Shown here: positions 17,241 through 20,822 of the stretch, one piece after another | Position numbering within the stretch: the stretch's first letter is position 1 | Layout: each line of letters opens with the position of its first letter | Origin: Geobacter sulfurreducens PCA | GTDB taxonomy: Bacteria > Desulfobacterota > Desulfuromonadia > Geobacterales > Geobacteraceae | Direction of reading: 5' to 3' | Assembly: GCF_000007985.2 (NCBI RefSeq) | Contig: NC_002939.5 | Coordinates: 2,400,001-2,432,000 of the forward strand | DNA length: 32,000 nt | The notes under the pieces: model-generated | What the model was told of the DNA's origin: nothing | Seen by the model: only the letters and a program-made list of their open reading frames with translations | Database searches by the model: none | Translations under genes and position numbers: made by a program

Positions 17241-18332
17241 ATGCGAAACAAGCTGTATGGCGTGAAAGCGCTAAAAATGGCCGGAATGGTCGCGATTTCG
17301 CTGCTTGTCGGTGCCTGCGCCACCGGGAAGATCAGGGAACGGGTCCTGACATTGCCGACCATCGAAGGCGCTTCGTACGTCGGCGACACAGACTGTGCCC
17401 AGTGCCATGACAAGATCGCGGCACCCTTCGTCCGGAGTATTCACGGCCGGATCGCCGACTTCGAAGTGATGGGGGGAACCAGGGGATGCGAGTCATGCCA
17501 CGGTGCCGCCAGCCTTCACACCACGGAAGGAGATTCCGCCAAGATTCTTTCGTTCGCAAGCCTGTCGTCGGACCAGGCATCTGCCGTCTGCCTCAAATGC
17601 CACTCGGCCGGCACCCACATGGAGTGGGCAGGCAACGAACATGCCCTCAACGATGTGGCCTGCACCGACTGTCATAAAATCCACCAGGACAAGACCGTTG
17701 CCCCGCACAGCCTGAAAATGGCACAGCCCGAGCTCTGCTACTCCTGCCATCAGGAGTATCGCGCAAAGGCCAACTTCCCTTCCCACCATCCCATCCGAGA
17801 GGGGAAAATGACCTGCACGAGCTGCCACGAAGCCCACGGTTCCGGCCAGAAGAACCTGAAGACCGAGGAGCGGGTGAACGACCTCTGCCTTAACTGCCAC
17901 AGCCGCTACCAGGGGCCCTTCGTCTTCGAGCATGCGCCGGTCCAGGAAGACTGCACCATCTGTCATGACGCACACGGCACCGTAGCCAACAACCTGCTTC
18001 GCCAGAGCGAGCCCTTCCTCTGCCTCCAGTGCCACGAGAGCCACTTCCACATCACCCGCGAGGGAGCCACGATCCCGGCGGGCAATGTCGCCCTTGACGC
18101 CAACAAGGACGGGGGCACCACCTACCCTGCCGGCCAGACGATCAGCTCATCCAACAGCGTAACCATGCCGAACAATCTCGGCGCTGAAGGATGGCGGATG
18201 GCCTTCGGCACCAAGTGCAGCGTATGCCACACCCAGGTGCACGGCAGCGACCTTCCCTCCCAGACCGCACCCACGGTCAACAGCACCGGCACCAGGGGAT
18301 GGCCGTCCGGCGGCAAGGGATTGACCCGCTAA
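17241..18332 (+). CDS. Decahaem c-type cytochrome, MtrA/DmsE/PioA family, with lipoprotein signal
   Basis: 363 aa, with RBS AAAGGAG 6 nt upstream. Ten CXXCH motifs. Strong resemblance to the Shewanella MtrA blocks I recall (LCYSCH...SHHP....[20 protein letters not shown]...[27 protein letters not shown], C-terminal [11 protein letters not shown]). The signal peptide ends in the lipobox-like LLVGAC. Confidence 0.9.
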   Translation: [363 protein letters not shown]

Positions 18333-18356
18333 CAACTTCTAGAGAAAGGAGCTTCT

Positions 18357-20384
18357 ATGCGACATATCGGTAAATGGCTCATGCCGTTGCCCGTACTGAT
18401 CCTCTGCGCCCCGCTTGCTCTCCTTGCCGAGGAAGGTCACAAGCCCTTCTCGGCCACCATGGAAACGGGTGGAGCGGGGCTTGCGGTCTCCGACGACATC
18501 AGCCGGGTGAACGAATATTCCTCCGTCAGAACCGAGCCCGGCATCAACCCGTACGGCAAGGTCGACATCCAAATCGACAAGGGAGGAGTCGAACTGGACC
18601 TCAACAGCCGCTACCTGGATTCCCGCGACCAGACCCACGGTGCGCGGATCGACGTGAAGCGGTTCTTCAAGAGCAGTTTCAGCTACGATGCCTTCCAGCA
18701 CTGGCTCGACCATGACAAACTCCAGTATCTGGATGCCTCGATCCCGGCTGCACCGGTGGCGGGCGCGTTCGATACCACCGGAGCCATCCTCGGCGTGCCC
18801 ACCGCTACCGGCACCACAAATCTTTACGCGTACACCGCCAACCCGATCGGACCGAACTTCGCGCCCAACTTCCTCGTTACGCGCAGATCCGACGGGGCTC
18901 GCTTCGTAACCAACGTGGCGCCGTCCGACACGGCAACCTATGCCGTTCAGCAACTCGGCCGGGCATCACTGTACGGCGAGGATATGGTTCCGAACCAGGA
19001 CTTTTCCATCGTGCGGCGGGAGTGGAAGAGCAATTCCGACTTCACCATCCCCCAACTGCCCAATCTCACCTTTCACTTCGGTTTCCGGGAGGAGACCCGT
19101 GAAGGGTGGGAGCAATCCATCGGCATGAGCAAGTGCACCTCGTGCCACATTACCGGCCAAAGCAAGCAGATCAGCGAAAGCACCCGCGACCTGACCGCGG
19201 GAGTGACCGGCAAATTCGGTCTCCTGACCATGAACTACACCTATCTGAACCGCCAGTTCCGTGAGAACGGCGCCGATCCGGTCCGCCGCTACGACCCGGC
19301 CCTCTCGCCAGGGGCAGCGCTGCCTGCAAACTACTATACCGGGGCAAACTCCCCCCCCACCTTCGACAACCGGATGCTCTACGATTACCGGGACGGCTAC
19401 CTGCCTTACGACGTGACCCCAGACTCCAACAAGGACAGCCACGTTGTCAAAGCCAAGGTTGATCTTCCCCGGGACACCACGGTCTTTGCCAGCTACGTGA
19501 AAGCAACGGTGGATAGCGACAAATCGGACGATCCCGGCTACTTCACCCTGGACAAGAAGACCCTCGAATCCGAGTATGACGCCTGGAGCGGCAAGGTCAG
19601 CACCACTCTCTGGAAACGACTGACTCTCACTCTTCGGGGCAAGCTGGAAAAACTCCAGGATGACGACGTGGCCATCACCTACACGCCCATCGCCTACAAC
19701 GACGGCAATGCCGCCAATGACATCTTCGGCTTCCCCGGCGCCACGGCTTCGGACATCCTGATGCTGCAAACCATCAACCGCCACTCCAGCGCATCGCGCG
19801 ACGTGGCGACCCTGGGGCTCGACTCGGTCTACCGCCTGGCGAAGCGAACCACCCTCCGCCTCTCCTACGAGTTCAAAAACGAGGATCGCGACGACTCCTT
19901 CTTCGGCACAACCAAGACGCACACCGTCAAGGCCGCCCTCAACGCCAGGCCCACCAATACCCTTTCGGCCCGGGCAAGCTACACCTTCAAGGCCATCGAA
20001 AACCCTTTCCAGAACCCAACCGCCGGGCTGGTCCCCTTCACCCAGTCGGCCAGCGGCTACGGCTACCTGGTGGGCAACGGCCCCACCTATGGCGTTGAGT
20101 TTTACGACCGCAGGACTGCCGACCTGACCAACCGCCCCGACACGGTCCACGAGGGGAGCCTTTCCACCACCTGGTCCCCCTCGCCGCGCTTCTCCGCCAC
20201 GGCCTTCGTGCGGGTGAAGAATGAAAGCAACGACCTGAATAAAACCACCTGGAAACAGGAGACTTACGTGCCGGGCGTATCGCTCTGGTACGCCCCCTCG
20301 GACAAGGTGAGCATGACCCTGGCATACACCTATCTCAAGCAGACGACCGAGAATTCAATGTGCCAGGGGCTTTACGACGGCTGA
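18357..20384 (+). CDS. MtrB/PioB-like outer-membrane beta-barrel, N-terminal 675 codons up to the in-frame TGA
   Basis: RBS AAAGGAG 6 nt upstream, 24 nt after the decahaem stop. Signal peptide ...APLALLA/EE. Long run of amphipathic strands. Internal CTSCH at aa 260-264. As written it ends ...CQGLYDG with no OMP beta-signal. Confidence 0.75.
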   Translation: MRHIGKWLMPLPVLILCAPLALLAEEGHKPFSATMETGGAGLAVSDDISRVNEYSSVRTEPGINPYGKVDIQIDKGGVELDLNSRYLDSRDQTHGARIDVKRFFKSSFSYDAFQHWLDHDKLQYLDASIPAAPVAGAFDTTGAILGVPTATGTTNLYAYTANPIGPNFAPNFLVTRRSDGARFVTNVAPSDTATYAVQQLGRASLYGEDMVPNQDFSIVRREWKSNSDFTIPQLPNLTFHFGFREETREGWEQSIGMSKCTSCHITGQSKQISESTRDLTAGVTGKFGLLTMNYTYLNRQFRENGADPVRRYDPALSPGAALPANYYTGANSPPTFDNRMLYDYRDGYLPYDVTPDSNKDSHVVKAKVDLPRDTTVFASYVKATVDSDKSDDPGYFTLDKKTLESEYDAWSGKVSTTLWKRLTLTLRGKLEKLQDDDVAITYTPIAYNDGNAANDIFGFPGATASDILMLQTINRHSSASRDVATLGLDSVYRLAKRTTLRLSYEFKNEDRDDSFFGTTKTHTVKAALNARPTNTLSARASYTFKAIENPFQNPTAGLVPFTQSASGYGYLVGNGPTYGVEFYDRRTADLTNRPDTVHEGSLSTTWSPSPRFSATAFVRVKNESNDLNKTTWKQETYVPGVSLWYAPSDKVSMTLAYTYLKQTTENSMCQGLYDG

Positions 20385-20822
20385 GCGGGCATCATCGTAT
20401 CGGGCCAGTTTGGCTCGACTTGTGACGAATACCAGTACGACACCGACGTCCACACGGTATCGCTCACCACAAACTATGACGCAACCGAGAAGCTCAAGCT
20501 CTTCGCCAATGCCATGTACAACGACGCCGAAGCCCGCATGAACGGCCTCTATTTCCCCTCGTTCGCGGAACTCGGCTACACGGACCCGGTCCTCACCTCC
20601 GCCTTCTACGGTCTGCAAAACCTGCCGCGCATCCAGGAGTATTCCGACCTCCGCTACCGGCAGATCGACCTGAGCGCCGGGGGAACGTACCAATTCACCC
20701 CCAATCTTTTCATGACCGCCCAGGCCGGATTCCAGCAGTTCATGGACGATGCCCCCTATGTCTACGGTGACCAGGACGGCATCACCTACACCGGGTCGGT
20801 CGGAATCGGTTATAAGTTCTAG
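20385..20822 (+). CDS. In-frame C-terminal continuation of the same barrel (145 codons) carrying the beta-signal
   Basis: Same frame as 18357..20384, with no stop between 20385 and 20820. GC3 of the 44 codons from 20385 through the first ATG (20514-20516) is about 77% (34/44), which is coding-like. No SD precedes the ATG at 20514. Ends ...YTGSVGIGYKF, a typical OMP C-terminus, and the strong terminator comes only after it. Confidence 0.6.
   Translation, partial: AGIIVSGQFGSTCDEYQYDTDVHTVSLTTNYDATEKLKLFANAMYNDAEARMNGLYFPSFAELGYTDPVLTSAFYGLQNLPRIQEYSDLRYRQIDLSAGGTYQFTPNLFMTAQAGFQQFMDDAPYVYGDQDGITYTGSVGIGYKF
20395..20428 (+). other. SECIS-like hairpin downstream of the in-frame TGA
   Basis: Apical hairpin U-CGGGCC-AGUUU-GGCUCG-A (20400-20418: 7 bp with one G.U, pentaloop containing GU, loop G 26 nt from the U of UGA). 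A 4-bp lower stem UCGU/ACGA (20395-98 with 20425-28) lies across an asymmetric internal loop. Confidence 0.3.

Follow-up and report, generated by a model that had tools for sequence, protein, structure and literature searches.

The adjacent genes omcK and omcL of Geobacter sulfurreducens PCA lie on the forward strand of a 32-kb stretch of DNA (contig NC_002939.5, positions 2,400,001 to 2,432,000), which is referred to below as the window and supplies the coordinates used here. They encode a decahaem c-type cytochrome of the MtrA/DmsE family and an outer-membrane β-barrel that models as an MtrB-type fold, and comparative evidence indicates that the barrel gene is read through an in-frame UGA as selenocysteine (Sec). 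Both products belong to named families: OmcK scores 481 bits against NF041028 ('GSU2203 family decaheme c-type cytochrome', cutoff 325) and OmcL 645–647 bits against NF041027 ('GSU2204 family CXXCH-containing (seleno)protein', cutoff 350). Published work gives GSU2203 the name OmcK and lists GSU2204 as a 'putative cytochrome c'; their transcripts are approximately 2.4–2.7-fold up with hematite and 1.5–1.7-fold up with magnetite. Murali et al. (2023) named the pair the OmcKL porin:cytochrome conduit, found it in syntrophic sulfate reducers and proposed the same module for electron uptake in the sulfate-reducing partners of methane-oxidising archaea, and a 2026 review counts NF041027, an MtrB/PioB-family barrel, among the prokaryotic selenoproteins. 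An identical OmcK protein is present on many public contigs, among them one from an NCBI assembly. Since the pair is catalogued in NCBIfam, in the selenoprotein review and in the literature as OmcKL, it is not new; we found no experimental studies of OmcK or OmcL in the literature. A first reading made from the letters of the window only (the sequence-only reading) had regarded an Mtr-type module in this genome as intriguing; the module is real, and its presence in Geobacter was already on record. What is unusual is a covalent-haem motif in an outer-membrane barrel, an obligatory Sec predicted at the cell surface, and an MtrA homologue that is a predicted lipoprotein.

The product of the omcK frame is 363 amino acids (aa) long; it contains exactly ten CXXCH motifs, and neither CX3CH nor CX4CH occurs in it. 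Its stop codon (18330–18332) is separated by a gap of 24 nucleotides (nt) from the ATG at 18357, which opens a barrel frame of 675 aa up to a TGA; the same frame then stays open until the TAG at 20820–20822, giving 821 codons with the TGA included. These coordinates and counts, verified from the sequence, agree with the sequence-only reading, which had described a 363-aa decahaem frame followed by a barrel frame. The features of the locus are collected in Table 1.

Table 1. Features of the omcK–omcL locus and of its upstream neighbours, in window coordinates.
Feature	Position	Strand	Basis or remark
omcK, decahaem c-type cytochrome, MtrA/DmsE family (GSU2203 subfamily)	17241..18332	+	family models, 10 CXXCH
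omcL, MtrB-fold (modelled) outer-membrane barrel selenoprotein, 821 codons	18357..20822	+	signal peptide, 675-aa N-part, Sec676, 145-aa C-part
Shine-Dalgarno AAAGGAG of omcK	17229..17235	+	read from sequence, 5 nt before ATG 17241
Lipobox V-G-A-C (Cys26) of OmcK	17307..17318	+	conserved among homologues; predicted lipidation
Shine-Dalgarno AAAGGAG of omcL	18345..18351	+	read from sequence, within the 24-nt gap
OmcL CXXCH codons C260-T-S-C263-H264, preceded by K259	19134..19148	+	conservation; putative haem c attachment
UGA codon 676 (Sec), motif C669-x-G-x-Y-x-G-U	20382..20384	+	TGA kept across loci
SECIS-like hairpin	20400..20418	+	covariation across loci
Post-UGA coding region: rest of Sec loop with C689, β22–26 (predicted), end GYKF	20385..20819	+	conserved frame
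Intrinsic terminator	20864..20892	+	9-bp stem, 8 G-C pairs, then T-run; 42 nt past TAG
Divergent LysR-family regulator gene	16003..16926	-	ATG 16926 likely start, 307 aa; open reading frame listed as 16003..16956 from TTG
ATAAG-N5-CTTAT palindrome ATAAGTTTTGCTTAT, candidate LysR operator	17043..17057	.	LysR/omcK intergenic region, T-N11-A type
DUF3373 protein (PF11853, 537 bits)	12131..13915	+	upstream of LysR gene
103-aa secreted protein	14030..14341	+	upstream of LysR gene
8-haem cytochrome, type I signal peptide	14490..15860	+	weak octahaem tetrathionate reductase resemblance (165 bits, cutoff 375)

The recoding of omcL was examined by comparison of 75 omcKL loci, mostly from Desulfuromonadales and Geobacterales. 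Codon 676 is TGA in all 63 motif-matched loci, and in 71 of 71 when the remaining readable loci are added; a Cys codon, TAA or TAG occurs in none. Past the UGA, the 63 motif-matched loci contain 107–165 further in-frame codons, and the region is conserved in frame in 68 loci with 34–61% identity. All of these frames end with an aromatic residue, mostly Phe, in the pattern ...G(Y/W)(K/R/N)F, which is the C-terminal signature of outer-membrane barrels. A strong terminator is found past the TAG, but there is none past the TGA at 20382.

A hairpin resembling a selenocysteine insertion sequence (SECIS), UCGGGCCA-GUU-UGGCUCGA, begins 18 nt past the UGA (+19 to +37) and consists of an 8-bp stem closed by the loop GUU. 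Among 62 distinct sequences, 94% of the cells are paired, compensatory changes occur in six of the eight pairs, and the loop bases G27 and U28 are invariant. The observed value was attained by none of 500 shuffles, and registers slid along the alignment pair at 20–59%. Loci that have peptide insertions past the UGA keep a hairpin at the same distance, indicating that the RNA structure, and not the peptide alone, is under selection.

Searched against 5.8 billion proteins, the read-through product retrieved 102 homologues with 34–99% identity, each 464–697 aa long, and no full-length close homologue was present in this collection. All 34 homologues that aligned in full end at C-x-G-x-Y-x-G, i.e., before the Sec codon. 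The 145-aa C-part searched alone retrieved only orphan fragments of 95–143 aa, indicating that omcL is systematically split by gene callers. In public calls the gene is broken at the UGA, yielding a protein of approximately 650 aa and an orphan 'hypothetical protein' of 95–143 aa, as at 4117–6144 and 6274–6582 of locus L076. As a result, surveys miss OmcL or assign it a wrong size. Cys at the Sec column is found in no close relative and in four distant full-length relatives (P0145, P0155, P0167 and P0197), of which the two scanned, P0145 and P0167, pass NF041027. The selA, selB, selC and selD genes do not lie within the window; G. sulfurreducens is a known Sec user. On these comparative grounds, TGA 20382 is a Sec codon, and the read-through to 821 codons that the sequence-only reading had raised as a hypothetical case is borne out.

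The barrel is related to MtrB by domain content and by fold. OmcL passes the Pfam model MtrB_PioB (PF11854, gathering threshold 23): the N-part scores 47 bits, and the read-through product scores 59.6 bits over residues 46–798. Given that read-through extends the match to residue 798, the post-UGA part completes the domain. The TIGR03509 model, which the sequence-only reading had proposed for identifying the barrel, is failed by OmcL (38.2 bits for the N-part, 30 bits at full length, cutoff 240). MtrB was not retrieved when a family profile of the full-length barrel was run against PDB sequences. An AF2 model of the N-part, built on a 99-sequence alignment, has 21 strands (predicted local distance difference test, pLDDT, 79; predicted template modelling score, pTM, 0.74), and its best match in the PDB is MtrB (6r2q_B, E 3e-12, template modelling score, TM, 0.58/0.60), followed by TonB-dependent receptors with TM of at most 0.39, at an OmcL–MtrB sequence identity of about 12%. 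The model of P0167, a full-length Cys-type relative, has 26 strands (pLDDT 81, pTM 0.83) and likewise matches MtrB best (E 1.4e-25, TM 0.61/0.76). For the N-part and P0167 models, the next best matches among the other solved structures have TM of at most 0.49. Five further strands (β22–26) can be read from the sequence pattern of the OmcL C-part, giving 21 + 5 strands, and OmcL thus models as a 26-strand barrel of the MtrB fold.

A hidden Markov model search of 1.84 billion cluster representatives yielded 705 relatives of OmcL at E ≤ 1e-3, including 191 at E ≤ 1e-30. Most of the best 150 end exactly at the Sec column. About 20 read on past it; the residue at the column is Cys in four of these and G, S, K, T or L in the rest. 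In three relatives that have neither Sec nor Cys at this column (P0227, P0235 and P0238), 'YHHGS' occurs in the same loop. Two extra cysteines are found in P0153, P0191, P0178 and P0204, and in P0153 and P0191 one of them aligns with C689 of OmcL.

OmcL carries a CXXCH motif (CTSCH, residues 260–264) and the conserved Sec in the same interval, both of which had gone unremarked in the sequence-only reading. K259-C260-x-x-C263-H264 is invariant in 99 close homologues, and (K/H/M/Q)-C-x-x-C-H stands at the same column in 98–99% of the distant representatives that cover it (best 150), with the His after the second Cys 99% conserved in distant relatives. The cysteines of OmcL outside this motif are one in the signal peptide and C669 and C689, which flank the TGA and may staple the hairpin. 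Only three cysteines are present in P0167 and P0197, of which two belong to the haem motif and the third stands at the Sec column. The Sec or Cys thus has no conserved thiol partner and is more likely to be a lone ligand or nucleophile than half of a selenenylsulfide couple.

Strand parity in the two structural models would place both sites on the same side of the barrel. In each model, the even-to-odd strand connections are all 2–7 residues long and the long loops are all odd-to-even. Since barrels have short periplasmic turns and long extracellular loops, and since both sites lie in odd-to-even connections, the CXXCH and the Sec are predicted to be extracellular. The CXXCH lies in the β7–β8 connection (residues 259–261 of OmcL, between strands 237–258 and 262–287; residues 229–235 of P0167), and the Sec/Cys position lies in the β21–β22 connection (Cys654 of P0167, between strands 629–652 and 661–686). 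In OmcL, 21 modelled strands precede the Sec and five predicted ones follow it, so that the count agrees from either terminus. The β7–β8 and β21–β22 hairpins are the longest of the barrel, with strands of 21–26 residues, and are set in opposite walls, 12–14 strands from each other. The CXXCH and the Sec would thus project at the extracellular mouth. H115, which belongs to the motif HxLDHD and stands where strand 5 reaches its outer end, is 95% conserved in distant relatives and is no less plausible as an ordinary distal ligand of the haem.

The assignment of OmcK to the DmsE/MtrA family, proposed from the sequence alone, was upheld by TIGR03508 (245.2 bits, cutoff 192.2). Against the solved MtrA structure (6R2Q chain A), OmcK aligns with E 8.6e-45 and all ten haems are collinear: haems 1–9 fall in one block with 37% identity over 225 aligned residues, and haem 10 forms a second block. 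The MtrA sequence blocks that the sequence-only reading had given are real, QMTCSDCHNPHGS and CLNCHSQVHGS being among the matched blocks of this alignment. Unlike MtrA, which is soluble and has a type I signal peptide, OmcK has near its N-terminus a conserved lipobox, V-G-A-C26, followed by a strongly conserved linker, ATGxIRExxLTLPxIEGA. L-[GAST]-A-C followed by ATG occurs in essentially every full-length OmcK homologue of the related loci (about 60), and OmcK is a predicted lipoprotein. The segment between haems 9 and 10 is approximately 30 residues longer than in MtrA and is poorly conserved. In the solved MtrCAB complex, only MtrA residues 284–306 and haem A10 are surface-exposed; OmcK residues 281–315 (18081–18185) match the surface-exposed part and are variable. 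At the C-terminus of OmcK (18309–18329), G-x-G-LTR is invariant in about 60 homologues.

Across the 75 loci, the conserved module comprises three genes: omcL (75), omcK directly upstream of the barrel gene (70) and a divergent LysR-family regulator gene (62), the next commonest real neighbour being found in at most 17. The claim that the operon has no MtrC-like partner was thus confirmed over this set. The LysR protein, a 307-aa product in public calls, matches NF041036 ('multiheme cytochrome-associated LysR family transcriptional regulator') with 519 bits (cutoff 210) in an alignment that starts from residue 11. A palindrome, ATAAG-N5-CTTAT, is perfect in 9 of 30 intergenic regions, is present with at most one mismatch in 18 of 30, and lies mostly 24–30 nt from the start of the LysR alignment. 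A generic inverted-repeat search of the intergenic region gave a weak pair only, and the LysR-type box emerged by cross-locus comparison. The LysR protein probably controls omcKL through this box. A scan for sigma-70 promoters over 16900–21100 gave no match. Antisense frames at 17493–18050 (-), 18339–18953 (-), 18966–20150 (-) and 15823–16971 (+) overlap omcK, omcL and the LysR gene; these shadow frames, which also form a 'conserved' cluster across related loci, are best read as by-products of G+C-rich coding strands, not as genes. The omcKL loci L036, L045 and L074 come from bins labelled Verrucomicrobiota, Spirochaetes or Myxococcales and lie on short contigs, L074 being frame-disrupted; they are possibly mis-binned or decaying copies.

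The wider surroundings are consistent with a chromosome of the G. sulfurreducens type and include guaA, guaB and miaB upstream and rpsT, holA, lptE, leuS and a 27-haem c7-repeat cytochrome gene downstream. The last of these is a 728-codon frame (25525–27711, -) that adjoins leuS and has 27 CXXCH motifs in nine c7-type trihaem repeats (TIGR04257, 724 bits); its product is a GSU2210-like 'nanowire' polymer cytochrome. The 8-haem cytochrome upstream of the LysR gene was considered as an MtrC-like partner and rejected: its signal peptide is of type I, an MtrC/MtrF domain is missing, its likeness to octahaem tetrathionate reductases is weak, and it is found near omcKL in only 8 of 75 loci. Its gene and the DUF3373 gene occur together near omcKL in L001 and L005, and counterparts with 26–31% identity lie on the other side and strand in the Desulfuromusa-type loci L053, L054, L059 and L061. 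The DUF3373 protein and the 8-haem cytochrome may form a second outer-membrane protein/cytochrome pair.

On balance, we consider it fairly probable that OmcK and OmcL form an MtrAB-type outer-membrane conduit whose barrel itself supplies the outer-face redox site. In this scheme, an N-terminal lipid would anchor OmcK in the inner leaflet of the outer membrane, and OmcK would thread OmcL as MtrA threads MtrB, from haem 1 on the periplasmic side to haem 10 in the outer mouth. OmcL would bind an eleventh haem at the tip of the β7–β8 hairpin and would present a selenol at the tip of the β21–β22 hairpin, on the extracellular side. The haem and the selenol of OmcL would then replace the outer module that MtrC (or DmsAB, MtrF) supplies in Shewanella, and a barrel that supplies the outer-face redox site would explain the absence of a third cytochrome gene. 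Electrons could pass through OmcKL in either direction. The sequence-only reading had described an MtrAB/PioAB-type pair; the homology of both the decahaem protein and the barrel agrees with this, and the pair is not a plain one, given that the barrel is a selenoprotein with a haem motif and the decahaem protein is a predicted lipoprotein. The association with Fe(II) oxidation or electron uptake, which had been drawn from the two-gene layout, is neither supported nor contradicted: the transcripts are up with Fe(III) oxides, the module has been proposed for electron uptake in syntrophic sulfate reducers, and in published Mtr phylogenies MtoAB/PioAB form no function-specific clade and oxidising systems are not set apart from reducing ones.

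Several points weigh against this scheme. Haem binding by OmcL, its selenium content and its complex with OmcK are predictions from sequences and models. On the window sequence alone, the hairpin is no stabler than shuffled sequences (z 0.78), and Rfam gave no match around the TGA (150 nt, E up to 10) or in the whole window at gathering thresholds. OmcL is clearly below the TIGR03509 cutoff, and the count of 26 strands comes from P0167, which is approximately 26% identical to the OmcL N-part. The closeness of the OmcL haem motif, the Sec and haem 10 of OmcK is deduced from strand parity and strand length only. We know of no precedent for a covalent haem on an extracellular loop of a barrel assembled by the β-barrel assembly machinery (BAM). 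In the model of Murali et al., OmcK is extracellular.

This last model leads to an alternative, which we consider unlikely, in which the arrangement is that of the porin–cytochrome (Pcc) conduits: OmcK would be a surface lipoprotein outside the barrel, OmcL would be the porin, and an unlinked periplasmic cytochrome would enter from inside. The published placement of OmcK, the absence of a periplasmic cytochrome gene adjoining the pair, and the similarity of the OmcK lipobox to those of the outer lipoprotein cytochromes in the Geobacter Pcc/Ext clusters are all in line with it. However, OmcK matches MtrA, the barrel-inserted component, haem for haem, and OmcL has the 26-strand MtrB fold that sheathes MtrA. 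Moreover, a second cytochrome gene is conserved in none of the 75 loci, and lipoproteins with Ala at +2 are by default located in the inner leaflet of the outer membrane.

A second alternative concerns what the haem and the Sec are for. They could constitute a catalytic centre rather than a simple relay, i.e., an enzyme at the cell surface that reduces or oxidises organic disulfides or species of sulfur, selenium or other chalcogens, in which the Sec would be a lone nucleophile or a haem axial ligand and OmcK would merely feed electrons. The Sec is invariant, with no Cys form in close relatives, a pattern typical of catalytic rather than structural residues, and the three-cysteine relatives P0167 and P0197 exclude a conserved thiol partner. 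ExtKL, the component of a Geobacter outer-membrane conduit in a selenite/tellurite cluster, is also listed as a selenoprotein, and the 8-haem cytochrome encoded nearby bears a weak resemblance to octahaem tetrathionate reductases. Nevertheless, we regard this alternative as quite improbable: H115 could be an ordinary distal His, some relatives have neither Sec nor Cys at this column, the sole expression data concern Fe(III) oxides, and the conserved neighbours point to no substrate. A narrower proposal, which is also rather unlikely, is that the Sec at the β21–β22 tip serves the putative haem of the opposite β7–β8 hairpin as distal axial ligand or as immediate catalytic partner.

It is very improbable that the locus holds an ordinary MtrAB/PioAB pair, with the TGA as a true stop of a truncated or decaying barrel or with a CXXCH that is non-haem like the conserved CXXC of Shewanella MtrB: gene callers do annotate a 675-aa product and an orphan frame, and the single-sequence fold of the hairpin is unremarkable, but this reading is already contradicted by the comparative data, namely the TGA kept in 71 of 71 loci with no other stop, the 34–61% identical downstream frame with its terminal Phe, the covarying hairpin, the Cys of four distant relatives, the terminator found only past the TAG, the 99% conserved His after the second Cys, and the inability of a barrel without its last five strands and β-signal to close.

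The conduit with a redox-active barrel, if correct, has several implications. How electrons pass the outer face of the outer membrane, outwards or inwards, in Geobacter and its relatives is still debated, and a barrel that carries a haem and a selenol would make OmcKL a minimal two-protein conduit with a built-in terminal site, as well as an outer-membrane selenoprotein that couples selenium supply to extracellular respiration. If the Sec does pair with the β7–β8 haem, OmcL would be both sheath and terminal redox enzyme and would display on the cell surface a c-type haem that is naturally associated with a selenolate. A superfamily of approximately 700 clusters of haem-bearing MtrB-like barrels would then be defined. 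G. sulfurreducens is genetically tractable.

His/Cys-ligated c-type haems are found in TsdA, SoxAX and DsrJ; these offer a possible analogy only, on account of the lone conserved Cys/Sec near a CXXCH haem with no thiol partner. OmcL, in which such ligation is putative, has no sequence or fold relation to them. Like Cyc2 of Fe(II) oxidisers, OmcL is an outer-membrane barrel polypeptide that itself bears one CXXCH. Cyc2, however, has its haem motif in a cytochrome domain at the N-terminus, to which a barrel of about 17 strands is fused, whereas the OmcL motif joins strands 7 and 8 of a barrel that has 26 strands and a decahaem cytochrome as its separate partner.

With the Pcc/Ext systems of Geobacter (OmaB-OmbB-OmcB, ExtABCD, ExtEFG and ExtHIJKL), OmcKL shares the organism group, a function in outer-membrane electron transfer and lipoprotein cytochromes. 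In the Pcc/Ext clusters, a smaller barrel that is unrelated to MtrB is combined with two cytochromes, one periplasmic and one outer, whereas OmcKL combines one cytochrome gene with an MtrB-fold barrel. ExtKL, like OmcL, is listed as a selenoprotein (2026 review). In common with PioAB and MtoAB, OmcKL is a two-gene set of decahaem cytochrome and barrel with no MtrC-type gene, and the cytochromes fall in shared Pfam/TIGRFAM superfamilies. Compared by description, PioB and MtoB are plain 26-strand barrels in the literature, and, unlike in those systems, nothing at OmcKL points to Fe(II) oxidation. Relative to Shewanella MtrCAB, OmcKL lacks MtrC, OmcL has a CXXCH and a Sec, and OmcK has a lipobox and a segment about 30 residues longer. 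With the core of that complex (6R2Q), OmcKL nevertheless has in common an MtrA-homologous decahaem cytochrome, a 26-strand barrel of the MtrB fold, the order of cytochrome gene then barrel gene, and the short gap between them.

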